Assembly (NCBI GenBank): GCA_036278635.1
Contig: DASUKQ010000165.1
Coordinates: forward strand, 4,607 to 68,606
Origin: Rhodanobacteraceae bacterium
Lineage (GTDB): Bacteria; Pseudomonadota; Gammaproteobacteria; Xanthomonadales; Rhodanobacteraceae
Length of the DNA stretch: 64,000 nt
Direction: 5' to 3'
A program made the position numbers and the translations under genes. Below are positions 1,414 through 46,933 of this stretch, piece by piece. How positions within the stretch are numbered: position 1 is the first letter of the stretch; every line of letters begins with the position of its first letter. Below the pieces are notes generated by a model, which was not told where the DNA came from, did no database searches, and saw only the letters and a program-made list of their open reading frames with translations.

Positions 1414-1479
1414 CGCTGGCTCCGTCGTGATTCCACAGCGTGGCGTTGCCGCACGCCGAAATCAAGTTAGCATCGCGGC

Positions 1480-11799: not shown

Positions 11800-11925
11800 G
11801 AGCCTGCGTGCAGGCGACCTTGTCATGGGTTCGCTAGCACGCCGGGTCGCGAGCACGCTCGCTCCTGCAGCGCTTGTCCCGTCCACGCGAGAACCGTAGG
11901 AGCCTGCGTGGAGGCGACCTGTCAC
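11796..11925. repeat. REP-like pair, GTAGGAGCCTGCGTG(C/G)AGGCGACCT, variant of the GTAGGAGC family
   Basis: Copies at 11796-11820 and 11896-11920. They fill the whole xerC/sulfotransferase convergent spacer and overlap both stop codons. Confidence 0.8.
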
Positions 11926-13784
11926 ACCACATAACCGAAACGTTCGATCCACGGACGCAAGATCGGCAGTACCGGTTCGAACTGCTCGAGATAATCCCTC
12001 CAGTGCCCCACGGCCGCGTTGCTCACGGGTTGCGTGACCTGCGCGTAGCTTGGCGTGTCGATGAACCGCTTTGCTCCTGCGTGCCGAGCAAAGTCCAGCA
12101 TCGGCGCAGCGTCCTCGACATCCAGGTATTCCCCGAGCCGTGCGACGGATCCCTCGAAATCCGCGACGACCGACTCGTAGCGCCACTCCAGCATCTTCGG
12201 CGCGAACACGTCAAGGTGTCCGCAACATTGTTCGAATGCCTGCGCGTACCCGCGTGCCAGGCGCGGCAACGATGAGCACATGACCATGAAGGCCGGCGAG
12301 CGGAACGACTGCATGCTGCAACTGAGCAACACATCGCACGGATGCCGCAGGCACAGGATGATGCGGGCCGCGGGGTACAACCGCAGGATCATCGGCAGGC
12401 ACAGCATGTTGAGTGGATTCTTGTCCACCAGTCGTCGCTGGCCGAGGTCCGGCAGCACGCGACGAACCAACCCGTCGTAGACGGCGCGCAACTGGTCCGC
12501 GTCGTCCTGGGCGAGGTCGGCGAGATCGTCCGGATAGCGCTGGCCCGCGTGCTCCATGCGCTCGATCAGGTTGTAAACGTGGCCGCGCTCACCCATCGAC
12601 CGGAAATCCGGGTGGGCATCGAGCATCTGTTCCAGCAAGGTCGTTCCCGAGCGCGGAAAACCGATTACGAACACCGGGCTGTGCCGGGATGAAGGCCCCG
12701 CCAGGGGCTTCCATGCGGCGAAGCCGTTTGCATCGACCGATTTCGCCGCCATCGGCAATGGCTGGCTGTCGGGCGCCAACAGTTCCGGCGCGACCTCGCG
12801 GACCAGTTCCCTCTGTGCCGCGTGGGCCAGTTCGACGGTTTGCCACGCATCGTGGCGGCGCGCTTGGCGATCGAGCGCCACGGCCAGGCCGAAGGCCGCG
12901 GCGGCCCGAACCTCGGCGTCCCCGGCCGCGTCCAGCACGCGCCGGTAAAGCGCGGCCGCATCGGCATGGCGGCCTTCGCGCATGGCCACCACGGCATGGG
13001 CGCGCCAGCCCTCGACGCGCGCCTGCTCCGCGCCGACCGGCAATGCATCCAGCCCGGCCAGGGGCAACTGTCGCAGCTCGCGTTGCGCATCCCCGAGAAG
13101 ATTGTTCCGCTCGTACAACGCAACGCGCTGCGCCGTGATGCGAAGCCGCAACGGGTCGGCGGCCGACGATTCGGGCAGGCGGGCTTGCACCAGCACCCCC
13201 AGCGCCTCTTCCAACCGGCCCTGCGCGGACAGCATCGCGGCCAGCACCAGGGCCTGCGCGGCCGGCTGCGGCGGCCAGTCGCCGGCCTGCTCCAGCATGG
13301 CTTCCTCGCCGTCGCTGTCGCCGCACATGTGGCAGGCGTGGGCGGCCCGCAACCGCGCCTCGACATGCTGCGGCGCGAGTTGTACCGCGTCCAGCAACGC
13401 TTCGCGCGCCTGCGGCCAACGCCTCTGCCCGATGTAAAGCAGCCCGAGGTTGAAATGTACGTCGGCGTCCCGGGGCGCCAGCGATTTCGCCGTCAGCAGC
13501 GCATGCTCCGCGGCCACGGGGTCGCCGGCGTGGCGACACGCGACGCCAAGATTGTTCCAGTATGCGGAGACGTCCGGCCGCATCCGCGACAACCGTTCGA
13601 ACGTGGCCATCGCCTGCGCGTGACGCCCGGTCTGCTGCTGCGACATGCCCAGCAACGCGAGAACCTGTTCATCGCCCGCGGCCTCCGCGTGAGCGCGCCC
13701 GGCGAGCGCGATGACCTGCTCGAAACGGCCGGCCTGCCATGCATCCACCATGGACTTGGCAAGTTCGGTGGCCGAGGCCGACAT
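11922..13784 (-). CDS. TPR-repeat protein with C-terminal sulfotransferase domain
   Basis: The N-terminal ~330 aa are TPR-like. The C-terminus carries the PAPS-binding 5'-PSB motif FVIGFPRSGTTLLEQML and a sulfotransferase fold (...DKNPLNMLCLPMILRLYP...). Confidence 0.85.
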   Translation of the reverse strand: MSASATELAKSMVDAWQAGRFEQVIALAGRAHAEAAGDEQVLALLGMSQQQTGRHAQAMATFERLSRMRPDVSAYWNNLGVACRHAGDPVAAEHALLTAKSLAPRDADVHFNLGLLYIGQRRWPQAREALLDAVQLAPQHVEARLRAAHACHMCGDSDGEEAMLEQAGDWPPQPAAQALVLAAMLSAQGRLEEALGVLVQARLPESSAADPLRLRITAQRVALYERNNLLGDAQRELRQLPLAGLDALPVGAEQARVEGWRAHAVVAMREGRHADAAALYRRVLDAAGDAEVRAAAAFGLAVALDRQARRHDAWQTVELAHAAQRELVREVAPELLAPDSQPLPMAAKSVDANGFAAWKPLAGPSSRHSPVFVIGFPRSGTTLLEQMLDAHPDFRSMGERGHVYNLIERMEHAGQRYPDDLADLAQDDADQLRAVYDGLVRRVLPDLGQRRLVDKNPLNMLCLPMILRLYPAARIILCLRHPCDVLLSCSMQSFRSPAFMVMCSSLPRLARGYAQAFEQCCGHLDVFAPKMLEWRYESVVADFEGSVARLGEYLDVEDAAPMLDFARHAGAKRFIDTPSYAQVTQPVSNAAVGHWRDYLEQFEPVLPILRPWIERFGYVV

Positions 13785-13892
13785 GCAAGCGCGATCCGTT
13801 GCCCGGGCGTTCCAGTGTAACCACGAAGGGCGCCGCGCTGGCGGCGCCCTCGTCCATGGCGTGGCCTCCCGGATTTCCCCGGGAAGGGAGGT

Positions 13893-16757
13893 TCAGAACC
13901 TCAGCGTCGCCCGCGCCCAGTAGTAGCGACCCATCGTTTCGTACGTCGCGGTATCGGTGTTGACCTGGCCGTTCTGGTAATACAACGGCGGCCGCCGGTC
14001 GCTGATGTTGTCGACGCCCACGTCGAACCGCGTGTGGATCGTCGGCACCGCGACCCCGAGCTGCAGATCGCTGTAGACCACCGAAGCCATCGGCAGGCTG
14101 GCGTTGGTCGCGGCGTCGGCCTGCAGCGCGGTCACCGAGCTGATGTAGCGCGTCCGCCACTGCGCATCCCAGTTGCCGAGGGCCCAGTTGATCGTCGCGG
14201 CGGCGCGCCAGCGGGAGATGTTGCCGAACTGCGGGCTCAGCGTGCCGGCGTACTCGATGGTCTCCTCGCCCGGCTGGCCGGGGGTCGCGCTGTTCTTGAA
14301 GGTGGACGTGTACGACGTGTCGAGGCCGACCTTGAAATCGCCCGGGTTCACGCTGCCGAAGTTGAAGTGCGGAATCTTGTAGTTGATCGTGAAATCGATG
14401 CCGCTGGTGCTCAGGGAGCCGAGGTTGACCACCGGCGTGTCGATGACGAACACCTGGCCCGGGTTCCGGGTGGTGGTGTCCTGGCGGTGGATGAATGCGC
14501 AGAACGGACTGGCGTTGTTGTCGAAGCACGCATTGACGACCGTGCGCCCGTCGATCGGCACCAGCGTGTCGTACAAATAGATGTGCCAGAAATCGAGGCT
14601 GGTGTTCAGACCGGGCAGCCAGGCCGGGTCATAGACCAACCCGAAATCGACGGACTTGCCGTGTTCGGGCTTGAGGTTGGCGCCGACGACCCTGGCGCCC
14701 GAGTAGAACGTGTTGACCTGCGCGACGTCGTTGCCGTTCCAGTTGACCGGCACGTACTGGCAAGCGGCGGCGTGTGCCGCAAGCTCCGCCGCCGTGAGAT
14801 GGACGCAGGGATCGTTCAGGGCGGGCTGGACCAGGGAACGTCCGTTGTACAACTGGTCGAGGTTGGGGGCGCGGAACACTTCCGAGATCGTGCCGCGAAC
14901 CAGCAGGTCCTGGATCGGCCGCCATTCGATCGCGATCTTCTTGTTGGTGGTCGAACCCGCGCTGGCGTAGTCGGATGCGCGGATCCCCAGGTCGACGTTC
15001 AGCGAATATGCGCCGGGCACGTTGGACAACAGCGGGATCAGGGTTTCGGCAAACAGCTCCTTGACGTTGTCGCTGCCGCGACCGGGCGAACCGCAGGCTT
15101 CCTGCAGGATCGCGCAAGTGGTCGTCACCGGATCCAGCACCGCGAACGGGTCCACGGTGTAGTTCATCGTTTGCTTGCGGTACAGGCCGCCGACCGAGAG
15201 TTGCATCGGTCCGGCCGGCAAGGACCACAGTTCGCCGTCGGCGCCGAACTGGATTTGCCGCAGCGATTCGAACTTCTCGTAGGTCGCGGTGAGGGCGCCC
15301 GCCGATAGCGCCTCGCCGTTGTTGGCCTGGTCGAAAATATTGACGCCCCGGTCGATGGCCGCCTGCAAATCGGGGATCGACAATTCGTTCTCGTCGCGCT
15401 GGGTGCGTGCGGTGTGGCCGTAATTGAGGGTGACGTTCCAGTTCCAGCTGCTGTCGCCGAAGCGCCCGCGCAAGCCGCCGATCGCCTGTCCGGTGCTGGT
15501 GGTGTAGGGATGGATGCGGGTCCCCGCGCCGGTGAGGCGGGTCTGGAAGGTGTAGCCGCTGTCCGGGTCGCCGGGCAGCACGTTCTGGCTGAAGGTGACG
15601 CCGAACGGGTTGAAGGGCGCCGAGGACGGGATGATCAGGCCGTCGCCGGTCCCCACCGGCGCGGCGGCGTCCTGCCCGGCCGAATTGGTGTGGTTGTAGA
15701 AGACATCGAGGAAGGCCGTGACGTTGTCGGTCAGGTTGTAGCTGCCGAGGATGAAGCCGTCGGTGCGTTTCTGTTCGACCTGGATGTAGTTGAACGCCGC
15801 ATAGTTGAACGTGTCGTCCGGGTTCCGGCACCGGTAGTCGTCCAGGCTCGTGCCGTCACCACTTGCCAGCGTGACCTGGCCGGTGGCGGGGCAATCGAAC
15901 CTGCCGGCCAGCGAATCCGGGATCTGCATCCTGCCGGCGGGGATCGAGCTGGACCCTGCAACGACCACCTGTCCGCCCGAAAGGTACAACTGCGCCTTCG
16001 AGAAATCGCGCCGGGTGGCGGGCACGGCGTTGTATTTGTTGTAGTCGATGCCGCCGGCAAGGCTGTACTTGTCCGTCGAGCGCCCCATCGTCAGGCTGAA
16101 GCCGTGCCGCTGGCCATCGCCGTGGCTGGAAATGCCGTCGTTCAACGTCACTTCGGCGCCGTTGAAATCGTTGCGCAGGATGAAATTGACCACGCCGCCC
16201 ACCGCATCGGAGCCGTAGGTGGTCGAAGCGCCTTCGGCGAGGACGTCCACGCGCTCGATCATCGCTTGCGGAATCAGGTTCATGTCCGCATTGAGCATCC
16301 GCTGGCCATTGATCAACACCAGCGTGCGGCCGGTGCCCAGGCCACGCAGCGACACCCGCGAGGCGCCGTCGCCGCCTTCGGTCAGCGGGGACGCCACGCC
16401 GCCGCCATTGGAATTGTTCTGCGTGTTGGTCGCGTTGCCGCGAATGCTGGGCAGTTGCTGCAGCACGTCGCCCAGCGTCGGCTTGCCGGTGTTGGCGATG
16501 TCCTGGCGATCGATCATGACCACCGGGCTGGCCGTCTCGAGGTCGACACGCCGGATCAGCGAGCCGGTGACCACCACCGCCTTGAGGGTTTTGGGCTGGC
16601 TGTCGGCCTGGTTCTGGTCGGTCTGGTTCTGGCTGGCCGCCGCCTGGTTCTGGTTGTTCGACGTCTGCTGCGCCTGGGCCAGACCTGCGCCGGCGACAAG
16701 GCCCGCGGTCAATCCAACTCGCACGGCCAGCGACAAACGCTTCATTTTGTGGTTCAT
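13893..16757 (-). CDS. TonB-dependent outer-membrane receptor
   Basis: Signal peptide MNHKMKRLSLAVRVGLTAGLVAGAGLAQA. Plug domain (LKAVVVTGSLIRR...ASPVVMIDRQDI...RGLGTGRTLVLINGQR) and C-terminal ...YYWARATLRF. Start set at the ATG at 16757. Confidence 0.9.
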   Translation of the reverse strand: MNHKMKRLSLAVRVGLTAGLVAGAGLAQAQQTSNNQNQAAASQNQTDQNQADSQPKTLKAVVVTGSLIRRVDLETASPVVMIDRQDIANTGKPTLGDVLQQLPSIRGNATNTQNNSNGGGVASPLTEGGDGASRVSLRGLGTGRTLVLINGQRMLNADMNLIPQAMIERVDVLAEGASTTYGSDAVGGVVNFILRNDFNGAEVTLNDGISSHGDGQRHGFSLTMGRSTDKYSLAGGIDYNKYNAVPATRRDFSKAQLYLSGGQVVVAGSSSIPAGRMQIPDSLAGRFDCPATGQVTLASGDGTSLDDYRCRNPDDTFNYAAFNYIQVEQKRTDGFILGSYNLTDNVTAFLDVFYNHTNSAGQDAAAPVGTGDGLIIPSSAPFNPFGVTFSQNVLPGDPDSGYTFQTRLTGAGTRIHPYTTSTGQAIGGLRGRFGDSSWNWNVTLNYGHTARTQRDENELSIPDLQAAIDRGVNIFDQANNGEALSAGALTATYEKFESLRQIQFGADGELWSLPAGPMQLSVGGLYRKQTMNYTVDPFAVLDPVTTTCAILQEACGSPGRGSDNVKELFAETLIPLLSNVPGAYSLNVDLGIRASDYASAGSTTNKKIAIEWRPIQDLLVRGTISEVFRAPNLDQLYNGRSLVQPALNDPCVHLTAAELAAHAAACQYVPVNWNGNDVAQVNTFYSGARVVGANLKPEHGKSVDFGLVYDPAWLPGLNTSLDFWHIYLYDTLVPIDGRTVVNACFDNNASPFCAFIHRQDTTTRNPGQVFVIDTPVVNLGSLSTSGIDFTINYKIPHFNFGSVNPGDFKVGLDTSYTSTFKNSATPGQPGEETIEYAGTLSPQFGNISRWRAAATINWALGNWDAQWRTRYISSVTALQADAATNASLPMASVVYSDLQLGVAVPTIHTRFDVGVDNISDRRPPLYYQNGQVNTDTATYETMGRYYWARATLRF

Positions 16758-17025
16758 GGTTTTTCCCGGCAAATGTGGAACAACGCAAGCGCGTCCACTG
16801 GCTGGGATGTACCGATTCCCCGGTGCAACACATCCAAATGTACCGCGCGCCAACCCCCCGTCGTGCCGCTAACAGCGATTTAACGATACTCTTGGCGAAT
16901 ACTTCCCGCAATGGCCCCCGACCCGCCTGCAATACCGCCGGGGAAGTGTCCCCCGTCCCGGCCCGCTTGCGATTGCCGCGCCCGGCCCCCACCTTGGCGG
17001 CAGTCTCCCGCGTCAAGAGGTGCCC

Positions 17026-36626: not shown

Positions 36627-36631
36627 AGTCG

Positions 36632-36781
36632 CTGGGTCCCGGCTTGCGCCGGGATGACGGCAATTTGACCGCTCGTACGTGATGACACGATTTTACGAAT
36701 CGTGCAGGGATGAAAGAGCTTCGCGAGCTTGCCGCGGAACGACATAAACACTTCGTCATCCCGGCGCAAGCCGGGACCCAG
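36632..36781. repeat. inverted pair of CTGGGTCCCGG-hairpin-CCGGGATGACG ('VIPAQAGIQ'-type) elements upstream of the GIY-YIG gene
   Basis: 36632-36660 ctgggtcccggcttgcgccgggatgacgg and 36754-36781 cgtcatcccggcgcaagccgggacccag are reverse complements of each other. Confidence 0.85.
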
Positions 36782-36805
36782 TGTCTTCATTCGGGAATCG
36801 TTCCC

Positions 36806-37093
36806 ATGCAACCCTGCGCCTACATGCTCGCCAGTCGCCGCAACGGCACGCTGTACGTCGGAGTAACGTCCGATCTGCTCAAACGCGTGCACGAGCACAA
36901 GAGCGGCGCCATCAGCGGATTCACGCGCCGCTACCACGTCCATCAACTGGTCTGGTTTGAAGAACACGCGACCATGGAATCCGCAATTGCACGCGAGAAG
37001 GCCATCAAGGAATGGAAACGCAAGTGGAAGCTCGAATTGATCGAAAAGCAAAACCCGTACTGGCACGATCTGTACGGCGCGCTGTTTGATTGA
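36806..37093 (+). CDS. GIY-YIG nuclease-family protein (UPF0213-like)
   Basis: CAYMLASRRNGTLYVGVTSDLLKRVHEHKSG...VWFEEHATMESAIAREKAIKEWKRKWKLELI carries the GIY...YVG motif, the conserved Arg and the Glu. Confidence 0.85.
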   Translation: MQPCAYMLASRRNGTLYVGVTSDLLKRVHEHKSGAISGFTRRYHVHQLVWFEEHATMESAIAREKAIKEWKRKWKLELIEKQNPYWHDLYGALFD

Positions 37094-37129
37094 GGCCTCG
37101 CTCAATCTTCCAGACGCAGAGGGGGAAGT

Positions 37130-37272
37130 CACTGGCTTCCGGATCGCGACTGCGTCGCGTCCGGAATGACGACAATTCGGCAATTGACGCAAACCTTGCG
37201 GTCCGACTTTGTGCGCGGGCAATAAGGCACTCGTCACTCCGGGCGTCGCAAAGCGACGATCCGGAACCCAGC
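37130..37272. repeat. second inverted pair of the same REP class downstream of the GIY-YIG gene
   Basis: 37130-37172 actggcttccggatcgcgactgcgtcgcgtccggaatgacgac and 37230-37272 ctcgtcactccgggcgtcgcaaagcgacgatccggaacccagc. Confidence 0.75.
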
Positions 37273-37313
37273 AGCCCTGGATTTGGAAAGAACCGGGGCA
37301 ATGCAGAAAGAGG

Positions 37314-38498
37314 TCAAGCGTCAGCCCACACCTTGTGCGCGGGATCGAACTCGACAGTGACGCGCTCTTTGGCACGCGCGCCGAAACCGCACACGCACAA
37401 CGGGCCTTCGGCCATCGGCTCAAGGCCGAACGCCTGCTCGATCTCGACCTCGTTGATCGCGGCGGTGATGAAGGCGCCGAGGTTCATCTCGGTGGCGGTG
37501 AGGTAGAGGTTCTGCGAGATGTGGCCCATCTCCAGCAGGATCGCGCGGTAGATCTTGGGATGGTTGCGGTACTTCCACATCGAACGTGCGAAGCGCGCGG
37601 CCATCACCAGCAGCACCGGCGCATCGGCAAAATAGTCCTGGCCTGCCACCGCCGTCATCGCGAACGCGCGCGCATCGTCGGGCGACAGCGCGCGCAACAA
37701 ATCCAGTGCGTGCGCTTCGACGGTGTAGTGGTACAGCCCCGGCGCCAGGCCTTCCGCCAGCTGCACGACCAGATACGCCTCGGTGGGATGCAGCCCGCCA
37801 CCGGAGGGATGGTTCTTCTTGAGCGCGACCGCGCCGGGTGCAAGTTCTTCCATTCCGCGCACGCCGAACACGCGTTTCAGCAGGGCCGACAACTGCGCCG
37901 CGGAGACCGATTGCGCCAGATCGAAATTGCGGCAGGTCGCGCGGCGTTCCAGCAGATCATCCAGCGGGGTGCGTGCAGGTTCGTCCAGCGCCACGCGCGC
38001 AACAGCGTCCGCACGCCGGTGGAAATGCGGCGGCGGCGGGCCGAACGCCGCGACCATGTCGTCCACCGATTGCGGGCGCGATTCGCGCTGCGTTGCGGTG
38101 CTGTCGTCGTGCGACCAGCGCGAGAAGGCGTGCATCACGGCGCAATCGTCCTGCCAAGCCGCCTCGCGCAGCTGTCGATCGCGTCGTGTGCGCGGGGAGT
38201 CGTCTTCTTCAGCCAGCAGCAGCCCGTTCGCCAGCAGGCGATTGATGGCGGTTTCGCCCCACGCGCCACAGGCCTTCTCCCGCCGCACCCAATCGTCGGC
38301 GCTGACATGAACCAGGACCTGCATCTCCGCGTCATCTATTTCGACCGGATGATCAAGATGCGCCGCAAGAACTTCGACCACGACTTCGCGACCAACCGCT
38401 TCATCCCCAGCAAGCAACGCGGAGAAATCAACCGTCGCGTGTTCCGTCGTTCGAAACCGCAGCGACTGACAGCGACGCAGCCTTGAACCATTCTCCAC
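37314..38498 (-). CDS. SagB-type (nitroreductase-fold, FMN) dehydrogenase; putative peptide-maturation dehydrogenase
   Basis: The C-terminal ~220 aa has nitroreductase/SagB signatures (RRATCRNF, KKNHPSGGGLHPTEAYLVV, GQDYFADAPVLLVMAARFARSMWKYRNHPKIYRAILLEMGHISQNLYL, LGAFITAAINE). The N-terminal ~170 aa is unassigned. I prefer the GTG at 38498, which has CAGGGG 7 nt upstream and leaves a 100-bp divergent spacer. The ORF stays open to the ATG at 38576. Confidence 0.8.
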   Translation of the reverse strand: MENGSRLRRCQSLRFRTTEHATVDFSALLAGDEAVGREVVVEVLAAHLDHPVEIDDAEMQVLVHVSADDWVRREKACGAWGETAINRLLANGLLLAEEDDSPRTRRDRQLREAAWQDDCAVMHAFSRWSHDDSTATQRESRPQSVDDMVAAFGPPPPHFHRRADAVARVALDEPARTPLDDLLERRATCRNFDLAQSVSAAQLSALLKRVFGVRGMEELAPGAVALKKNHPSGGGLHPTEAYLVVQLAEGLAPGLYHYTVEAHALDLLRALSPDDARAFAMTAVAGQDYFADAPVLLVMAARFARSMWKYRNHPKIYRAILLEMGHISQNLYLTATEMNLGAFITAAINEVEIEQAFGLEPMAEGPLCVCGFGARAKERVTVEFDPAHKVWADA

Positions 38499-38598
38499 CG
38501 GTAACCCCTGTCCAGTTGCAAGGTTCGGATATGCTAGCCGCGCCGCAAGCGCAGTACGCATTGTTCGCGGCACCATTCACACCCAAAGGGGCATCGAC

Positions 38599-38856
38599 AT
38601 GATCAAGGGCAAAGTCTCCAGCGAAACCGTCGGCAGGATCCTCGATCGCCTGTCGCAGGATCACGACTTTCGGGAGCACTTCATCGGCGATCCGGCTGGC
38701 GCGCTCAAGCCGTTCGGCATCGAGGTTGACGCCAGCAAGGTTCCCGCCGTGCGACGATTGCCCTCGAAGGATGAGATTGCGAAGGTCCGGGACAAGGCGA
38801 AAGGGATTGACGACCCCATCACGAAAGTTGGGCTTGCCGTTTTCCTGTTGAAGTAG
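38599..38856 (+). CDS. 85-aa NHLP/Nif11-like putative RiPP precursor peptide
   Basis: AAAGGGG lies 8 nt upstream of the ATG. VGRILDRLSQDHDFREHFIGDPAGALKPFGIEV matches the helix-turn signature of Nif11/NHLP-type leaders. The ORF is sandwiched between the dehydrogenase and the cyclase/TPR gene. Confidence 0.7.
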   Translation: MIKGKVSSETVGRILDRLSQDHDFREHFIGDPAGALKPFGIEVDASKVPAVRRLPSKDEIAKVRDKAKGIDDPITKVGLAVFLLK

Positions 38857-38880
38857 GGCCCATCCAGTGCAAACGGCGCA

Positions 38881-41421
38881 TCAATGGACGCTCGACGTCT
38901 CTTGATGCGCCGTGGCTTCCAACGACTGAAGCGCCAGCAAGTTGGGGATCAGTGCCGGTTCGTTTTCCAATTCCGCGATGGCTTGCCCGCGATGCGCCTC
39001 CAACCATTTTGCCTGTTGACGCGCGCCGTCCGCATCCTTGTCGGCCTCGTAGGCCAACATCAAGGCAACGTGGGTCTGGAAGTATTCGTGCCCGTCAACC
39101 AGCTTGGCAAGGCACGCGATTCGATCCTTGAGCGCGCTGATGTACTGCGTTTCGCAATCCGCGGTGTTCCACAGCGCGGCGCGGTCGTAATAACCATGAT
39201 TCAACGCCAGCTCGCGTGAGCTGTCCAGCGCCTTGCGCGCCAGCGCAGGCTGATCGTTGCGTACCGCCAGCATGGCTGCCAGAGCCAGGTGGATCGCGGC
39301 ACTGCCATCGACGGCCGGGCCAGTCTGCGCGATGCGTGTCGACTCGTCATTCACTATGTGCGTCAATTCCAACTTGGCGTCAGTTGTGCCTGTTGAGAAA
39401 TCCAATGCCGCACGTGCCAGCGCGATCCGCGCACGCTGCGGTTTTGCAGTGGCCGGCGCCATGGCTTCGGCCTTGTCAAGCAACCCGCGCGCATCTGCAT
39501 CCCTGCCCTGTTCGACCGCGACGGCCGCAAGACGCACCAGCTTCGCCGCCTCGATCGACGGAGGAATTCGTTTCGGCGCTGCATCAAGACGCGCCAGCAC
39601 CGCTTTGTAGTCCCGCAGCGCGAGATCAAGGCCCACATCCTCGTAATGCGGGGCAAGCATTCCGAGCTTGCGGCCCTGCTCAAGATAGCCTCGCGCCATC
39701 TTGTAATCATTGCGCTCCATTTCGATCATCGCCAGCGAATACCAACTGAGGCCTCGCAGCGGATTGCGCGAGTGCGCAACTGCAAGGAAATGCGGAATCG
39801 CTTCCGAAAGTCTGTGCTCGTACCACCAAAACCCCAAGCCCACATTCTGCTGGGCGCCACTGTCGTCAGGATAGAGCTGTGTCAAAGCCTGCCAGTTGGA
39901 TATCCATTTGTTGGCATCCGCGTACTGGCCGATCGTGGCATCCACGGTCAAGCGTTCGCGCGTGCTCAGGCGGTCGCGATTGGCTTCGGCCTTTTGGAGG
40001 CTTGCGTACGAAGCCGCGGGGTCATTCAGGAATGCGTTTTGCAGGGTTGCCACACGTGCCCAAGCCATCGCGAAATCAGGATCGATGGTGGTCGCCTGCC
40101 GCAGCAATGCCAAAGCTTCATTGATTTTGCCTTGTCCATACGCTGATTCGGCTTCTGCAAAGGCCCGCAACGCGTCGATATTGCTGGTCGTGATCTGCTG
40201 CAGTGGCATCGAGGTCTTCTGGATCGACGCCAACGATTCGCCCAGCCGCGAGCGCAGCTTGCCGAGCAACTTGTCGGTGGCCGGCAGGATCTGTTGCTCA
40301 CCATCGGCCTGGGTGGAATCGCTGTACACGGTGACGCCGGTGTGCGGATCGATCACCTCGGCACTGATCTGGATGCGCCCGCCGACCTGCGCGAGACTGG
40401 GCAGGATCAAAGCGCGCGCGCCTTCGCGCATCGCGACGTCCGCGCCGATGGTGCGGTTGACCGGCGTGCCGACGGGTTTCTCCATGCGCTTTAGCGCATT
40501 GTCCACCTGCATGTCGGGGATCACGTTGACGTACTGCGACTGCTCCAGTCCGATCTTGAACGCGGCGTCCAGCGGCGTGCCGAGCTGTTGCTGGTTGGTG
40601 TGGTTCTGCACGTTGCCAACCACCACCCAGTCGCGCGCGGCAAACGCCAGCGTGGGCGGGCTCTGCAGCAGGAACCACGCGGAGACGCCGATGGCGATCG
40701 CCAGCATCGCCGCTTCGGCAGCCAGCGTCAGCGGCCGCCGCCACCATGGCAACACCCGCTTCGCGGTGCGGCCGGATTTCGGCGCGTGGAGCGGCGCGAG
40801 ACCGACCTCGCCCGCTTCGACGATGGCCAGTGATTCGTGCAGGCCCTTGAAGCGGTAGCGTCCGTGGTTCTTCCATTGCACACGTTCGGCGGCGTCGTGG
40901 CCCAATTCCCCCTCGGCGCGATGCGCGATGCGGGCTGCGGCGGAGGACATCAGGATCTGCTGCGGCCGCGCCAGTTGCGCGAGGCGTGCGGCCACGGGCT
41001 TGACCAGACCTTCCACCTCGGTGGGCTTGGCGCCGCGCGCGACGTCTTCGGGTGCGTTTTCCCAGACGACCACGTCGCCCATGTGAATACCAACGCGCGC
41101 GCGCACCACGACTCCTTCGGCGGCCGAGAGGTGCTTCAGGCCGCGTTGGTAATCCAGCGCGAATGCCGCGGCCTGGATGGGGCGCTCGAACATCAGCAGG
41201 AAACCATCGGTCTTGTCGATCTCGCGGCCATGGTGCTGCTCGATGAGCGCACGCGCGAGGCGGTCGTGCTTGCGGATGATGTTGGCGGCGTTCTGGTCGC
41301 CCATGCGCTCGACCAGCGCGGTGGAATCGGCGATGTCGCACACCACCAGCGTACGCAATTGCGGGGTGGCCATGCGGCCCGGGCCGGGGGTCGTTTCCAG
41401 CTGGTGGATTTCGGCGGTCAT
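38881..41421 (-). CDS. membrane-anchored class III nucleotidyl-cyclase-domain / TPR protein (putative peptide-modification-system cyclase)
   Basis: N-terminal cyclase homology domain (LRTLVVCDIADSTALVERMGD...REIDKTDGFLLMFE...RVGIHMGDVVV), one TM segment (LTLAAEAAMLAIAIGVSAWFLL), then ~580 aa of periplasmic and TPR-like repeats. I prefer the ATG at 41421, with GGAG 9 nt upstream, over the GTG at 41457. Confidence 0.85.
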   Translation of the reverse strand: MTAEIHQLETTPGPGRMATPQLRTLVVCDIADSTALVERMGDQNAANIIRKHDRLARALIEQHHGREIDKTDGFLLMFERPIQAAAFALDYQRGLKHLSAAEGVVVRARVGIHMGDVVVWENAPEDVARGAKPTEVEGLVKPVAARLAQLARPQQILMSSAAARIAHRAEGELGHDAAERVQWKNHGRYRFKGLHESLAIVEAGEVGLAPLHAPKSGRTAKRVLPWWRRPLTLAAEAAMLAIAIGVSAWFLLQSPPTLAFAARDWVVVGNVQNHTNQQQLGTPLDAAFKIGLEQSQYVNVIPDMQVDNALKRMEKPVGTPVNRTIGADVAMREGARALILPSLAQVGGRIQISAEVIDPHTGVTVYSDSTQADGEQQILPATDKLLGKLRSRLGESLASIQKTSMPLQQITTSNIDALRAFAEAESAYGQGKINEALALLRQATTIDPDFAMAWARVATLQNAFLNDPAASYASLQKAEANRDRLSTRERLTVDATIGQYADANKWISNWQALTQLYPDDSGAQQNVGLGFWWYEHRLSEAIPHFLAVAHSRNPLRGLSWYSLAMIEMERNDYKMARGYLEQGRKLGMLAPHYEDVGLDLALRDYKAVLARLDAAPKRIPPSIEAAKLVRLAAVAVEQGRDADARGLLDKAEAMAPATAKPQRARIALARAALDFSTGTTDAKLELTHIVNDESTRIAQTGPAVDGSAAIHLALAAMLAVRNDQPALARKALDSSRELALNHGYYDRAALWNTADCETQYISALKDRIACLAKLVDGHEYFQTHVALMLAYEADKDADGARQQAKWLEAHRGQAIAELENEPALIPNLLALQSLEATAHQETSSVH

Positions 41422-41547
41422 GTTCGCTGCTCCGTTCGCGCTGAGCGTAGCGAGCACAGCGATCGGCGTCCTTCGACTCCGGCCCCGTCTTTTTCAAAGC
41501 CGGGGCCCACGCTCAGGACGAGCGGTTTCTCCATCCGCCCGGAAAAA

Positions 41548-42567
41548 TCAACTCATCACGTGCGCGCCGTCACCGCCGGAACCTTTCACGTGGTACAGCG
41601 CGCAATCGGCCTCGCTGTACCACACCGACCACTCGCCATCCTCGCGGCACAGGCCACCGCCGACGCTGACGGACACCGTGAGGTCCGGCGCGGATTGCGG
41701 AAAGCGCAACCGGCGCACGCCCTCGGCGATGCGCAGGGCGCGCTCGGCCAGTTCGCGCTGGTCGTGGACCTGGGTGAGCAGTGCGAACTCGTCGCCACCC
41801 AGCCTGCACGGCAGGTCGGTCGCGCCGGCAGCGTCCTGGATTTCCGCCGCGATCGCGCGCAGCACCTCGTCGCCGGTCAGGTGACCGCTGGTGTCGTTGA
41901 TCTGCTTGAAATGGTCGATGTCGATCAGCAGCAACCCGAAGCGGTGGTGGCGGTCGCGCATCTCGGGCGCTTTCTCGAGCAACTGGTAGAGGCCGCGCCG
42001 ATTGCTCAACCCCGTCAGGTCGTCGGTACAAACCTGGTGGCGCGCCAGTTGCAACTGGTCGCGCGTCTGCCGCAGCGAGTCCAGGGTCTGCATCAGGTCT
42101 TCGTTGCGACGCTTGTAATTGGCAATCAACTGCCTCTCGCTGGCGACCAGATAGGTAAACGAGCGCAACATGAAATGTGCCATCTGCAACGGTTCGCGCC
42201 GCAGCAGGTCCTCGAAGGCATCCGGATCGATCAGGTGCACGACGCTCGGCTCGGCAGCGAGGGCGCTACCGGAACGTGCATGGTTGCCGACGAACAACGC
42301 CAGCTCACCGAAGTATTCGTCGGGACCGATCAACTTGTCGGGCAGGTCGCCGGCGAATTCGAGCAGCACGCGTCCGGACTCAATCACGAACATGCTGCGC
42401 CCGTATTCGCCGCGCCGGAACACGGCGCGACCTGCGTCCAGTTCCACGCGCCGTCCGGCGCCGGCGAACAACGCCATTTCTTCGGCCGACAGCTGCCGCG
42501 GCAGGCGCCCCAGCCTGGGCGCCTCGGGTTCCGGTTCCGAGAAAACTGCTGAAGCATCACTGGACAC
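41548..42567 (-). CDS. cyclic-nucleotide-binding domain / GGDEF diguanylate cyclase
   Basis: cNMP-binding fold (VFRRGEYGRSMFVIESGRVLLEF...DEYFGELALFVGNHARSGSALAA) followed by GGDEF (DDLTGLSNRRGL...LLLIDIDHFKQINDTSGHLTGDEVL...RLGGDEFALL). Start reassigned to the GTG at 42567, after GGGAGGGGGG. The upstream part of the 582-aa ORF overlaps aceA out of frame. Confidence 0.85.
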   Translation of the reverse strand: MSSDASAVFSEPEPEAPRLGRLPRQLSAEEMALFAGAGRRVELDAGRAVFRRGEYGRSMFVIESGRVLLEFAGDLPDKLIGPDEYFGELALFVGNHARSGSALAAEPSVVHLIDPDAFEDLLRREPLQMAHFMLRSFTYLVASERQLIANYKRRNEDLMQTLDSLRQTRDQLQLARHQVCTDDLTGLSNRRGLYQLLEKAPEMRDRHHRFGLLLIDIDHFKQINDTSGHLTGDEVLRAIAAEIQDAAGATDLPCRLGGDEFALLTQVHDQRELAERALRIAEGVRRLRFPQSAPDLTVSVSVGGGLCREDGEWSVWYSEADCALYHVKGSGGDGAHVMS

Positions 42568-42817: not shown

Positions 42818-44116
<1,299 letters not shown>

Positions 44117-44174
44117 CGGGATTCTCCGTGTAGAGTGCAACCTGTGGATCCCGGGCTGCGCCGGGACGACGAGT

Positions 44175-45776
44175 TCAGATTTGCTCGTAGGCGGGCAGGG
44201 TCAGGAAATCGGCCAGGGTCGACGCGCCGACCAGTTCGCCCAACAACACCGCGGCGGCGGCGGCGCGCTCCGCACCCGGCAGCGTGCTTTCGTGCAGCAC
44301 GTGGACGGCCGTGGTCAACGCGCGCTTGAACCGTGTCGGCGTGATCGGAGCACCGTCGTCGAAGGCGAGCCCGCCGTCATGATGCAGCCAGCACCACAAC
44401 TGGGTGCGCGCGATCTCGGCGGTTGCGGCGTCTTCCATCAGGTGGTGGATCGGCACGCAACCCATCCCCGACAACCACGCCGCGGTGTAGCGCAATGCGA
44501 CTTCGACGTTGTTGTCGAAGCCCGCGTGGGTGATGCTGCCGCCACACGGCGCGATCAACATGTCGCGGGTGACGTGCACGTCGGAGCGCTCGACGTGCAA
44601 CTGGTTCGGGGTCGGCATGTGACGGTCGAAGACCTCGCGCGCGACTGCGACCAGCGCCGGATGCGCGACCCAGGTGCCGTCGTGGCCGTCCTCCACTTCG
44701 CGCAGCTTGTCGGCGCGGACCTTGGCGAGGGCTGCCTCGTTGGCCGCCGCGTCGCCCTTGATCGGAACCTGCGCGGCCATGCCGCCCATCGCGAAGGCGC
44801 CCCGCCGGTGGCAGGTCTTGACCAGGTAGCGCGAATAATTGCGCAGGAACGGCACCGTCATCGTCACCTGGCCGCGCTCGGGCAACACGCGGTCGGGGTG
44901 CGCACGCAGGGTTTTCAGATACGAGAAGATGTAGTCCCAGCGTCCGCAGTTGAGTCCGACCGCGCGCCGCCGCAGCGCGTACAGGATCTCGTCCATCTGG
45001 AACGCCGCGGGCAGGGTTTCGATCAGGACCGTGGTCCTGAACGTGCCGCGCGCGAGCCCGAGTTCGCGCTCGACATGCGCCATCACGTCCTCCCACAGCG
45101 CGGCCTCTTCCATCGACTGCAGTTTCGGCAGGTAGAAGTACGGGCCGAGATCCTTCGCCGCCAGCGCCCGCGCGTTGTGGAACGCGAACAGGGCGAAGTC
45201 GAACAGCGCGCCGGACAGCGGCTCGCCATCCACGCGAACGTGGTTTTCCGGAAGGTGCCAGCCGCGCGGGCGCACCATCAGCACCGCAATCCGAGGGTCG
45301 AGGCGGTACACGCGGCCGTCGTCGGCACGATGTTCGATGGTGCCGGCGACCGCGTCGCGCAGGTTGACCTGCCCGTCGAGCAGGTTGGTCCAGGTCGGGG
45401 TGGTGGAATCCTCGAAGTCGGCCATGAATACGTTGGCGCCGGAGTTCAGCGCGTTGATCACCATCTTGCGATCGACCGGCCCGGTGATCTCGACGCGGCG
45501 GTCGGCCAGCGCGGCCGGGATCGGCGCGACCGCCCATTCGGCCTGGCGGATCGCCCGGGTATCGGGGCGAAAATCGGGCAACCCGCCCTGGTCGTAGCGT
45601 GTTTGCAACCTGGCCCGTTCGGCCATCAGCGCCTGGCGCCGCGGTTCGAAGAGGCGGTGCAGGTCGACCAGCAGCGCCAGGACCCCGTCACCGAGCACCG
45701 CCTCGTGCTCCGCATGCGGCAGATCCCAAACCTCGATCTCCGTGTTTTCCTGCAAGGCTTCCATCGGTACGGCCAT
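44175..45776 (-). CDS. aceB: malate synthase A
   Basis: ...[35 protein letters not shown]...RPRGWHL...; 533 aa. Confidence 0.93.
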
Positions 45777-45858
45777 GGTGCGCTCCCGTGCGGTTGTCGA
45801 AAATCGAAGCTAGACGGGAGCCGTGCATTTGACAAAGCAAAGCTTTCAATCTATATAG

Positions 45859-45871
45859 TTGACAATGTCAA
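45859..45871. promoter_or_regulatory. perfect 13-bp dyad TTGACAATGTCAA (T-N11-A LysR-type box) in the aceB/LysR divergent spacer
   Basis: Read directly from the sequence. It lies in the most AT-rich stretch of the window (45830-45900), 37 nt upstream of the LysR start codon. Confidence 0.45.
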
Positions 45872-45907
45872 CGTCTATTCCAAACTATTGAATCCACGCG
45901 TGCAATC

Positions 45908-46933
45908 ATGGCTGAACGCCCCGTAAAAACCACTCGAAAGGGACCCGGCAAGCACGGCAGGCGCGGTGCAGACCAGTCGGGGAACCGGGCGCGCTTCTAC
46001 TACAAGGGCAATCGCTACAAGCAACTGCGCGCCTTCGTCGCGATCGCCAAGCTCGGCACCCTCGCCCGCGCGGCGGAATCGCTGTTCCTGTCGGCCCCGT
46101 CGATCAGCCTGCAATTGCAGGCCCTGGAGCGCGAGCTGGGCACGCTGCTGGTCGAACGCGGCCGGCGCCGCGTCACCCTGACGCGTGCCGGGCAGGCGCT
46201 GTTCGAACAGGCCCGGCCCCTGGTGGAGGGCCTGGATGCCCTGGACGCGCAATTCCACGGCGCGCTGGCGGGACTCGGCGCCGGCGAACTCACCATCGCG
46301 GCCGGATCGTCCACGATCCAGTACCTGCTGCCGCCGCTGGTTGCGGGTTACCGCGAGAAATTTCCCGGCGTGCGCCTGCAGCTGGCCAACGTGACCGGCA
46401 AGGACGGCCTCGCCCTGTTGCGTTCCAACGCGGCGGACTTCGCGGTGGGCTCCATGCTGGATGTGCCGCACGACATCAGCTATCAGCCGTTCCGGCGCTA
46501 CGATCCGATGTTGATCGTGCCGATCGGGCATCCGTTGGCCGACAAGCCCGACCTTCAGCTCGCGGACCTGTCGCCGCACGGCCTGATCCTCCCGCCGCAT
46601 CGCCTGACGACCTACCGACTCGTCGATCTCGTCTTCCAGCAACGCAAGGTGCCCTACACCGTCGCGATCGAAGTCGGCGGCTGGGAAGTCATCAAGCAAT
46701 ATGTCGCGATGGGGCTCGGCATTTCCATCGTCACCGGCATCTGCCTGACCGACGCCGACAACCAGCGCCTGGTCGCACGCAACATGCGCGCGTGGTTCCC
46801 GCAGCGCAGCTACGGCGTGGTGATGCGCAAGGGCACGTACCTGTCGCCCGAGGCGCGCGGTTTCATCGACCAGATCAAGCCGGGCCTGCTCACCCACCGC
46901 GAACATGACGAGACGGGGGATTCGGAGCGTTGA
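45908..46933 (+). CDS. LysR-family transcriptional regulator
   Basis: HTH LRAFVAIAKLGTLARAAESLFLSAPSISLQLQALERELGTLLVER followed by a substrate-binding domain. Divergent from aceBA. Confidence 0.88.
   Translation: MAERPVKTTRKGPGKHGRRGADQSGNRARFYYKGNRYKQLRAFVAIAKLGTLARAAESLFLSAPSISLQLQALERELGTLLVERGRRRVTLTRAGQALFEQARPLVEGLDALDAQFHGALAGLGAGELTIAAGSSTIQYLLPPLVAGYREKFPGVRLQLANVTGKDGLALLRSNAADFAVGSMLDVPHDISYQPFRRYDPMLIVPIGHPLADKPDLQLADLSPHGLILPPHRLTTYRLVDLVFQQRKVPYTVAIEVGGWEVIKQYVAMGLGISIVTGICLTDADNQRLVARNMRAWFPQRSYGVVMRKGTYLSPEARGFIDQIKPGLLTHREHDETGDSER

Follow-up and report, generated by a model that had tools for sequence, protein, structure and literature searches.

A conserved locus for an NHLP-related peptide, a SagB-type dehydrogenase, a TPR-bearing nucleotidyl cyclase and a cNMP-GGDEF protein in Rhodanobacteraceae as a candidate cyclic-nucleotide signalling module

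Introduction

In Xanthomonas campestris 8004, the 886-aa protein XC_0250 combines a cyclase domain (CYC, residues 32-191) with tetratricopeptide repeats (TPRs) (An et al. 2013, PMC3770947). Its isolated cyclase domain was reported to make cyclic GMP (cGMP) from GTP; XC_0249 binds cGMP and then makes more cyclic di-GMP (c-di-GMP), and XC_0250 and XC_0249 mutants lose virulence and biofilm formation (PMC3770947). The input signal of XC_0250 is given as 'as yet unknown' (Fig. S5 legend, PMC3770947). Here we analyse a related locus in a stretch of 64,000 nucleotides from a Rhodanobacteraceae metagenome-assembled genome (MAG) with a GC content of 67% (assembly GCA_036278635.1, contig DASUKQ010000165.1, positions 4,607 to 68,606 of the forward strand), which is referred to below as the window. 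The locus encodes an NHLP-related precursor-like peptide, a SagB-type dehydrogenase, a TPR-bearing nucleotidyl cyclase and a protein with cyclic-mononucleotide (cNMP) binding and GGDEF domains. It shares with the Xanthomonas pair the cyclase family and architecture (CYC plus TPRs; 886 versus 846 aa) as well as an adjacent cNMP-GGDEF gene. We give an even chance to the reading that the four genes make up a cyclic-nucleotide signalling module and not a peptide-modification complex, in which a peptide oxidized by the dehydrogenase would act on the TPR region of the cyclase and, through cGMP, on c-di-GMP. The part of this chain that comprises the cyclase, the cNMP domain and the GGDEF domain we hold to be quite probable.

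Two other groups of described systems bear on the locus. One is formed by the azoline oxidases McbC (microcin B17), ThcOx (cyanobactins), BmdC (bacillamide non-ribosomal peptide synthetase, NRPS) and SagB; in McbC, the pair Lys201-Tyr202 takes the C-alpha proton, with the hydride passing to flavin mononucleotide (FMN) (PMC6395948). The other is a trio of NCBIfam families that comes from comparative genomics: TIGR04509 (NHLP-related RiPP peptide, with RiPP standing for a peptide that is ribosomally synthesized and then modified post-translationally), TIGR04511 (putative peptide maturation dehydrogenase) and TIGR04510 (putative peptide modification system cyclase). The window set has the same membership as this trio, with nothing that differs, and as an object the locus is not new: it is an additional member of a trio that is already catalogued and annotated in GenBank. 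The family names imply a modification role for the cyclase, which is not favoured by the evidence presented here. In the searchable literature we found no paper on the trio by TIGR accession or family name, nothing joining RiPPs with guanylate cyclases and nothing on XC_0251 or XC_0252. Nor did we find there a description of the link between the trio and XC_0250/XC_0249, of the cNMP-GGDEF gene as a fourth member, of the mosaic structure of the cyclase, or of the second cyclase partner of the STAND (signal transduction ATPases with numerous domains) type that are reported below.

Results

Four genes in the window

The features of the locus are, in window coordinates:

37314..38498, minus strand: dehydrogenase gene (394 aa; GTG start at 38498 placed by homologue alignment)
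38499..38598, no strand: divergent intergenic region from the dehydrogenase start to the peptide start (100 bp, from the sequence)
38599..38856, plus strand: NHLP-related precursor-like peptide gene (85 aa, TIGR04509)
38881..41421, minus strand: cyclase gene (846 aa, ATG at 41421)
38881..40161, minus strand: cyclase residues ~421-846, variable TPR region, predicted periplasmic (TPR Pfam matches)
40162..40656, minus strand: cyclase residues ~256-420, juxtamembrane domain, predicted periplasmic (conservation 0.69-0.77)
40663..40734, minus strand: single transmembrane helix of the cyclase, residues 230-253 (hydropathy scan)
40786..41421, minus strand: N-terminal class III nucleotidyl-cyclase domain of the cyclase, predicted cytoplasmic (XC_0250 homology)
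41548..42567, minus strand: gene for the cNMP-binding and GGDEF protein (339 aa, GTG start at 42567; Pfam cNMP_binding and GGDEF)

The corresponding raw open reading frames (ORFs) comprise 85 aa (38599..38856, plus strand), 420 aa (37314..38576, minus strand) and 858 aa (38881..41457, minus strand). The peptide gene lies on the plus strand and the dehydrogenase and cyclase genes both lie on the minus strand, with the peptide gene divergent from the dehydrogenase gene across the 100-bp spacer and convergent with the cyclase gene (24 nt between the stop codons). The cNMP-GGDEF gene is located 126 nt upstream of the cyclase gene on the same strand. The spacer between dehydrogenase and peptide presumably carries the promoters of both genes. 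A promoter consensus scan gave a single weak promoter-like match (38576..38603), which overlaps the peptide start codon, and promoter and terminator consensus scans together with Rfam over 33-44 kb of the window returned nothing informative.

In hidden Markov model (HMM) searches, the peptide scored 50.6 bits against TIGR04509 (E 1.5e-13; curated cut-off 34), the dehydrogenase 475.7 bits against TIGR04511 (curated cut-off 240) and 127.1 bits against the SagB-domain model TIGR03605 (cut-off 78.4), and the cyclase 757.7 bits against TIGR04510 (model positions 2-801 of 814; cut-off 400). The cyclase is identical to an 846-aa GenBank protein from a Rhodanobacteraceae MAG, and GenBank and IMG records carry names of the TIGR04509, TIGR04511 and TIGR04510 type on identical or near-identical proteins. 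A preliminary description of this stretch, made from the sequence alone, had named the NCBIfam trio, and with all three proteins above the curated cut-offs this assignment was correct. It had also described an 85-aa ORF with a good Shine-Dalgarno sequence and a Nif11/NHLP-type motif, a ~395-aa SagB-type dehydrogenase, and an 846-aa cyclase-TPR protein with one transmembrane helix. These are indeed in place: AAAGGGG precedes the peptide ATG at 38599, the motif D-HD-F-R-EH-F-IG-D-P-AG-A-L-KPF-G-I is present in the peptide, the dehydrogenase has 394 aa with the TIGR04511 and TIGR03605 matches given above, and the cyclase has 846 aa with a single hydrophobic segment at residues 230-253. The three genes described as a module are therefore real, but the module was incomplete, with the cNMP-GGDEF gene as a fourth conserved member. 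This gene had remained unseen, as had the opposite-strand placement of the peptide gene, the kinship with XC_0250 and the mosaic structure of the cyclase.

A reported guanylate cyclase in the family of the window cyclase

The XC_0250 sequence that we used consists of the first 210 residues, as printed in the supplement of PMC3770947. An alignment of residues 19-209 with the window cyclase covers 193 aa at 54% identity (E 2e-64), and the 210 residues by themselves score 396 bits against TIGR04510 positions 1-194. Because XC_0250 matches this model, the 'modification system cyclase' family contains a reported guanylate cyclase, so the 'modification cyclase' would be a signalling enzyme. The preliminary description knew of no product or phenotype for the system, a statement superseded by the cGMP production and the virulence and biofilm effects reported for XC_0250, a member of the same cyclase family (PMC3770947).

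The XC_0250 fragment is also 70% identical to a 'putative peptide modification system cyclase' of Solilutibacter (Lysobacter) tolerans. In this species the gene order is LysR, malate synthase, isocitrate lyase, repeat protein, cNMP-GGDEF, cyclase, peptide, dehydrogenase, Na+/H+ exchanger, ComM and P-II; the opposite-strand peptide reaches 65 bits on TIGR04509 and the dehydrogenase 536 bits on TIGR04511, and the cassette occupies the same chromosomal neighbourhood as the window module. The paper on XC_0250 and XC_0249 is silent on a peptide and a dehydrogenase (PMC3770947), whereas both are present at this 70%-identical locus.

The best PDB match of the window cNMP-GGDEF protein is the cNMP domain 5H5O (E 1e-25), and the protein is likely a cyclic-nucleotide receptor joined to a diguanylate cyclase, the counterpart of XC_0249. 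Independently of PMC3770947, the conserved gene for a cNMP receptor beside the cyclase speaks for a cyclic mononucleotide signal as the cyclase product. Around residues 135-140, the Asn-Glu of the 5H5O sequence is replaced by Ser-Glu in the window cNMP domain. The former we take to be the guanine-contacting pair N145/E146, if 5H5O is XC_0249, and the nucleotide preference of the window domain might differ from that of 5H5O. A search of the protein collection with the 5H5O cNMP-domain sequence returned fragments only and no Xanthomonas protein.

Elsewhere in the window (1471..3279, plus strand), a cyclic-nucleotide-binding domain is fused to a patatin-like phospholipase of the neuropathy target esterase (NTE) type. 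With this protein, the same part of the genome could contain a second effector of cNMP; according to An et al., additional cGMP effectors must exist (PMC3770947).

Domains and predicted topology of the cyclase

A single hydrophobic segment (residues 230-253) emerges from a hydropathy scan of the cyclase, and KSGRTAKRVLPWWRRP flanks it on the N-terminal side. Because this single transmembrane segment is preceded by a cluster of Arg and Lys residues, the positive-inside rule predicts a cytoplasmic location for the N-terminal cyclase domain and a periplasmic one for the C-terminal ~590 residues. The TPR region is the least conserved part of the protein, with a column identity of 0.42-0.61 versus 0.69-0.77 in the juxtamembrane domain, and we propose this variable region as the sensor or specificity module.

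The cyclase domain matches the class III cyclases Ma1120 (E 9e-14) and Rv1900c (E 2.6e-10) in the PDB and scores 21.6 bits on Pfam Guanylate_cyc (PF00211), just under the gathering cut-off of 21.9. Residues D29, D72 and R146 are invariant in the family. The 'transition-state' residues A150, L157 and A161 of PMC3770947 mismatch the alignment to canonical cyclase motifs and served as a numbering fingerprint only.

Conserved gene order across Lysobacterales

To map the four genes across relatives, profiles made from the window proteins were used on the best 79 loci from a scan of one genome per species, in which 422 relatives were found. These loci (92 complete cyclase genes) came from Rhodanobacteraceae, Dokdonella, Mizugakiibacter, Tahibacter, Pseudolysobacter and similar, with no Xanthomonas among them. 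One to three peptide genes directly follow the cyclase in 84 of 86 evaluable cases (median ORF gap -2 nt), and all of the peptide genes (107/107) are opposite in strand to it. The dehydrogenase comes after the cyclase in 67 of 73 cases, and the co-occurrence of the trio, which had been suggested as a check, is thus borne out. Directly upstream of the cyclase, the cNMP-GGDEF gene was found in 44 of 76 evaluable cases; another 23 of these 76 cyclases are preceded by the dehydrogenase or peptide gene of a preceding cassette, because many genomes hold tandem arrays in the order GGDEF, cyclase-peptide-dehydrogenase, cyclase-peptide-dehydrogenase. The cNMP-GGDEF gene heads ~85% of the first cyclases of arrays. 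Other recurrent neighbours are of the housekeeping kind (isocitrate lyase, malate synthase, LysR, ComM and molybdenum-enzyme genes), and no protease, exporter or YcaO/cyclodehydratase gene recurs near these loci. The cyclase family as a whole is large: at E <= 1e-30, matches were obtained to 1399 clusters (50% identity).

The glyoxylate-shunt genes and a divergent LysR gene flank the module in the window (42818..46933), in S. tolerans (L162 1..3949) and in 18-31 related loci, depending on the gene. The module thus sits at a fixed, vertically inherited chromosomal site.

Two- or three-cassette arrays behind one cNMP-GGDEF gene are found in loci L004, L007, L008, L010, L031, L035, L038, L041, L042, L045, L053, L073, L150, L158, L160 and others, and typically consist of one cassette of a long-peptide type and one of a short-peptide type. 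An extra peptide-dehydrogenase pair without its own cyclase is present in L035, L044, L150 and L151. Two loci are exceptions to the synteny: L024 (10001..12655) has the cyclase and cNMP-GGDEF genes with no peptide or dehydrogenase gene in ~10 kb downstream, and L037 (5118..8605) has no peptide gene and only the C-terminal half of a dehydrogenase directly after the cyclase. Both may be decayed cassettes.

A constant output part and a variable TPR part in the cyclase

Comparison of the window with L021, from another Rhodanobacteraceae MAG, showed 90.6% DNA identity in a block that spans the LysR gene, the glyoxylate genes, the cNMP-GGDEF gene and the 5' part of the cyclase gene, up to window position 40324 inside the latter, after which similarity collapses. 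The dehydrogenase genes of the two loci are only 70% identical over 671 nt, and the peptide and TPR regions have no nucleotide match. At the protein level, the two cyclases are 87-100% identical up to residue 270, ~50-67% at residues 271-360 and ~25% beyond residue 420.

This pattern is general. Among 90 cyclases, 229 pairs have at least 80% identity over residues 20-360 together with at most 55% over residues 440-830, and the reverse was seen in none. In tandem paralogues of a single genome (L076, L063), identity falls from 99-100% before residue ~390-420 to 25-33% behind it, and TPR parts are 25-35% identical between cyclases whose N-terminal parts are 80-100% identical. In most mosaic pairs the juxtamembrane domain belongs to the constant block. 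We further compared divergence across 68 cassettes (2278 pairs, Spearman rho). TPR divergence correlates with that of the peptide leader (rho 0.72), the peptide tail (0.61) and the catalytic domain of the dehydrogenase (0.71), whereas the N-terminal module of the cyclase is uncorrelated with the peptide, the dehydrogenase or its own TPR part (rho 0.15-0.31).

These patterns point to the TPR region, the peptide and the dehydrogenase as one unit of inheritance and divergence, a specificity cassette that would be exchanged as a unit, and to an output module that is probably held constant by gene conversion. That the constant block repeatedly ends at the start of the TPRs suggests selection for distinct sensor specificities.

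The peptide-dehydrogenase pair in other contexts

On the pSymA plasmid of Sinorhizobium meliloti KH35c, a TIGR04509 peptide (38.5 bits) is encoded just upstream of a TIGR04511 dehydrogenase (270 bits) on the same strand. Adjacent to the pair lies the gene for an S8 serine protease, an IS110 transposase and an integrase are nearby, and there is no cyclase gene. Other hits in the plasmid search were mostly unrelated SagB genes in NRPS-like clusters (e.g. S. medicae), with S. meliloti pSymA as the only relevant case.

A metagenome scan anchored on the pSymA dehydrogenase yielded 80 loci. In ~30 of these, which we call the STAND type, the dehydrogenase and one peptide gene come after the gene for a soluble cyclase-TPR protein, on the same strand. 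This protein (~1020-1080 aa) has a zinc ribbon, a class III cyclase domain, an AAA_16 STAND ATPase and TPRs, with no membrane segment. Its cyclase domain is canonical, with Lys, Asn and Arg in the usual motifs, and from the Lys it would be expected to make cAMP; the accompanying dehydrogenase scores 339 bits on TIGR04511, and the loci are flanked by smc and ffh. The best NCBIfam match of the STAND cyclase is TIGR03903 ('TOMM system kinase/cyclase fusion'; TOMM, thiazole/oxazole-modified microcin) at 167 bits, far under the cut-off of 705. In its combination of Guanylate_cyc, AAA_16 and TPR domains this second partner resembles the known STAND-type class III cyclases (mycobacterial Rv0386-like; TIGR03903), but it differs from TIGR03903 in lacking a kinase domain and a LuxR domain. 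The window cyclase, in contrast to the STAND-type cyclases, is of the membrane type, which was represented by 17 loci in the metagenome scan, some of them with co-directional peptide and dehydrogenase genes. A few further loci (among them L087 and L089) have two peptide genes and a dehydrogenase with no cyclase gene in 6-7 kb upstream, and YcaO/cyclodehydratase genes were not recurrent in the metagenome loci.

The peptide-dehydrogenase pair thus appears to be an autonomous core, as would fit an enzyme and its substrate. Because the pair recurs with two different TPR-cyclase architectures, its linkage to such proteins would be hard to explain without a functional connection.

The dehydrogenase and its relation to azoline oxidases

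In the dehydrogenase, an N-terminal domain of ~130 aa precedes the C-terminal nitroreductase/SagB domain, where a Lys-Tyr pair (WKYR) is invariant. In its AlphaFold2 model (predicted local distance difference test, pLDDT, 87), the best PDB fold matches are BmdC, ThcOx and McbC, all of them oxidases of azolines bound to peptides or carriers; the family profile reaches the same three enzymes by sequence too, and the invariant W-K-Y of the family aligns with W-K-Y of ThcOx. Because of this Lys-Tyr pair and the azoline-oxidase fold matches, the protein is very probably an active FMN-dependent C-alpha/C-beta dehydrogenase.

With the azoline oxidases the dehydrogenase shares the nitroreductase/SagB fold and the FMN-binding motifs, and it keeps their catalytic Lys-Tyr pair; they are its best structural and profile matches. 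It differs from azoline-oxidase pathways in having no YcaO/cyclodehydratase partner in the window (none within ~5 kb on either side) or among the recurrent neighbours. A further difference, from azole-forming TOMM and linear azol(in)e-containing peptide (LAP) systems, is that the window peptide contains no Cys and is not rich in Cys/Ser/Thr. The absence of both a YcaO partner and Cys in the peptide had been noted in the preliminary description and holds in the window.

The N-terminal domain is distinct from azoline oxidases and without significant structural match. Its model (130 residues, pLDDT 90.6) comprises three strands, three helices and one strand, and Foldseek searches against the PDB gave no match at E <= 0.001. 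Among the weak top matches are enzymes that bear a RiPP recognition element (RRE), namely TigE (probability 0.92), TglHI, CteB, SuiB and TruD; this likeness to RiPP enzymes, seen in a model, is suggestive only.

The peptides

In the window peptide, the codon-position GC contents (0.62/0.37/0.78) are those of a typical coding sequence of this genome. A conserved N-terminal domain of ~48 aa is followed by the motif RLPSK, a helix and a hydrophobic C-terminal tail (VGLAVFLLK); there is no Cys, and one Thr in the last 12 residues. All peptide variants follow this layout: behind the ~48-aa N-terminal domain (LL.KLA.DD.FR..F...P..AL...G) come an L-P-x-K motif and a helix, and the C-terminal stretch is variable, with many hydrophobic and aromatic residues. 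Leaders have a mean pairwise identity of 0.41 and tails one of 0.19, that is, a conserved leader with a variable core. The peptides have no signal peptide and no double-glycine motif.

Two types occur in Lysobacterales. Short peptides (83-89 aa) end like the GLAVFLLK of the window and contain any Cys in only 40%, and long peptides (92-111 aa) always contain Cys. The types pair with different cyclase and dehydrogenase subtypes and are often found in tandem in one genome.

The S. tolerans peptide gene (L162 10595..10970, minus strand), for all its 65 bits on TIGR04509, was left uncalled by the gene caller of the source collection, and small opposite-strand genes of this family are probably under-annotated. 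In S. meliloti KH35c pSymA (L080 7260..7691, plus strand), the peptide ORF extends in frame upstream to MRRRNFVASTAAFMAASAIANA, which is twin-arginine-signal-like; this homologue would be exported if the extension is used.

Surroundings of the locus

Neighbouring genes in the window code for two glyoxylate-shunt enzymes (isocitrate lyase and malate synthase), a LysR regulator, a ComM/YifB-like ATPase, P-II and Fpg; genes for a YcaO, lanthionine synthetase, radical-SAM enzyme, protease or exporter are absent among them. Between the ComM-like gene and the dehydrogenase stop codon lies a region of ~690 bp (36627..37313) with lower GC (~0.61) and without a convincing ORF, for which Rfam gave no match; in S. 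tolerans, the Na+/H+ exchanger gene fills this position. A role in defence was considered and rejected: PADLOC models had zero matches for the three window proteins, and the neighbouring cNMP domain and the STAND cyclase matched at the level of generic domains only. At some distance (11922..13892, minus strand), a 656-aa TPR and sulfotransferase (Sulfotransfer_3) protein adjoins a TonB-dependent receptor (13893..16868, minus strand). It is reminiscent of peptide tyrosine sulfotransferases such as RaxST of Xanthomonas.

Discussion

We propose the following sequence of events for the locus. The 85-aa protein would be a precursor in which an NHLP-like N-terminal domain serves for recognition and the C-terminus forms a short hydrophobic tail. 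The dehydrogenase would bind it through its own N-terminal domain and carry out an FMN-dependent two-electron oxidation, most likely a C-alpha/C-beta dehydrogenation in or near the tail (-2 Da). Unlinked genes would probably provide for proteolysis and export of the product, which would then be recognised by the variable TPR domain of the neighbouring cyclase, a sensing domain predicted to be periplasmic in the membrane type and cytoplasmic in the STAND-type variant. Following binding, the N-terminal class III domain would make cGMP, as reported for the homologue XC_0250, and cGMP would bind the cNMP domain of the adjacent GGDEF protein, leading to more c-di-GMP and to a change in biofilm and virulence-type behaviour, as reported for XC_0249. 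Of the two functions suggested in the preliminary description, peptide sensing is favoured here and peptide modification by the cyclase is not, since the peptide-dehydrogenase pair is separable from the membrane cyclase.

Several observations weigh against this proposal. Peptide chemistry, export and ligand binding are all steps that we infer from the linkage, the recurrence with two cyclase architectures, the mosaic pattern and the catalytic signature of the dehydrogenase. The reported cGMP production comes from a single paper (PMC3770947) about a homologue of 54% identity; a search for a correction or retraction notice on this paper was uninformative and turned up none, and the PDB code 4KG1 that it cites was not in the PDB copy searched, where 5H5O is the matching cNMP domain. 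In the window cyclase, the position of the transition-state Asn is taken by Pro142 and the specificity residues are non-canonical in a manual alignment, and the nucleotide specificity is for that reason not readable from the sequence. With neither Cys in the window peptide nor YcaO, the canonical SagB substrate is missing, and the N-terminal domain of the dehydrogenase has no significant structural match to RRE domains (best E 0.14). The TPR domain is predicted to be periplasmic, but the peptide has neither a signal peptide nor a double-glycine motif, and its gene is not linked to one for an exporter or protease. The entire protein of 85-110 aa is fairly conserved, which also fits a small protein that is not processed. 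Finally, the TPR part, the peptide and the dehydrogenase are contiguous, and linkage together with gene conversion of the 5' part could give the same co-divergence without a relation of ligand and receptor.

The last but one of these points leads to an alternative that we consider unlikely, though deserving of attention, in which a small folded protein with a hydrophobic tail and a flavoprotein sensor (of redox state, oxygen or a metabolite) regulate the cyclase from the cytoplasmic or membrane side, with no cleavage or export. The conservation of the ~48-aa N-terminal part, the LPxK motif and the helix along the entire 80-125 aa protein would be expected of such a regulator, as would the absence of a linked protease or exporter, of a double-glycine motif, and of a conserved Cys, Ser or Thr in the tail. 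In addition, the tails at STAND loci have 16-18 hydrophobic residues, near the length of a membrane anchor, and the TPRs there are cytoplasmic. On the other hand, the peptide passes the model of the NHLP leader clan, the dehydrogenase keeps the Lys-Tyr pair of azoline oxidases with nearest folds that all act on peptide-bound substrates, and an S8 protease adjoins the pair in S. meliloti. Moreover, the TPR region, which varies and co-diverges in membrane-type cyclases, is predicted to be periplasmic and would lie beyond the reach of a partner in the cytoplasm.

The curated NCBIfam names and the co-occurrence of the three genes would suit a peptide-maturation complex, in which the TPR-cyclase serves as a scaffold or modifying enzyme (e.g. 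a nucleotidyl transferase) together with the dehydrogenase, the product is secreted (e.g. a bacteriocin), and cGMP is incidental. TPR scaffolds are indeed present in some RiPP pathways, with a weak match to HaaT, and the related comparative-genomics family TIGR03903 is the best match of the STAND variant. We nevertheless regard such a complex as improbable: in the membrane type, the catalytic and TPR domains are predicted to lie on opposite sides of the membrane, the homologous XC_0250 domain is reported to make cGMP, a cNMP-receptor gene is the conserved upstream neighbour, the peptide-dehydrogenase pair occurs without any cyclase, and no immunity or export genes recur. Still less probable, in our view, is mere co-location, with a peptide-dehydrogenase pair that makes an unrelated product beside cGMP genes in an ancient, vertically inherited synteny. 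Shared ancestry could explain the linkage at one conserved site between the glyoxylate-shunt genes and comM across Lysobacterales. It does not account for the linkage of the pair to a differently built cyclase-TPR protein in unrelated contexts (smc/ffh flanks), for the duplication of cyclase, peptide and dehydrogenase cassettes as units, or for a recombination boundary inside the cyclase gene, through which the TPR part travels with the peptide and the dehydrogenase.

The signalling module proposed here can be compared with known peptide-sensing systems in how it would work. In the agr system, a hypervariable region takes in the peptide, the enzyme that processes it and the sensory part of its receptor, and RRNPP receptors use TPRs to recognise peptides with short hydrophobic C-terminal ends. 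The window-type cassette is likewise a hypervariable set of enzyme, peptide and sensor beside a constant output (as in AgrB, AgrD and AgrC), and the trio likewise combines a TPR-bearing candidate receptor with hydrophobic peptide ends (as in Rgg, PlcR and Rap). This is a likeness of function only: there is no sequence relationship, the output would be a cyclic nucleotide and not phosphorylation or DNA binding, and export, cleavage and binding are putative for the present locus. NPR-A and GC-C are single-pass, peptide-activated receptor guanylyl cyclases with an external ligand domain and an internal class III cyclase domain. By functional analogy only, the window cyclase is also single-pass, with a predicted external TPR part and an internal class III cyclase domain; it differs in the reversed order of its domains, with the cyclase domain N-terminal, in its unrelated ectodomain and in its putative ligand.

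Tentatively, the locus might be taken one step further, as a Gram-negative peptide-pheromone system in which a YcaO-free SagB flavoenzyme makes a modified hydrophobic peptide, a receptor guanylate cyclase binds this peptide as its cognate ligand through the TPR ectodomain, and pherotype cassettes are exchangeable on a constant cGMP/c-di-GMP output. We consider this possible, and somewhat doubtful in its full extent.

If the signalling module exists as proposed, the peptide and the dehydrogenase would supply the signal that has been missing since 2013 for the XC_0250 virulence pathway, one of the very few bacterial cGMP pathways that have been described. The public name 'modification system cyclase' probably misdirects its users. 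New peptide chemistry could come to light from the dehydrogenase, which is of the SagB type, stands alone without a cyclodehydratase and has a defined candidate substrate. The bacterial group to which this locus belongs is known mainly for fatty-acid signalling through the diffusible signal factor (DSF). In these bacteria, the mosaic of constant output and variable sensor suggests that there are specificity groups, as in the peptide quorum sensing of Gram-positive bacteria.

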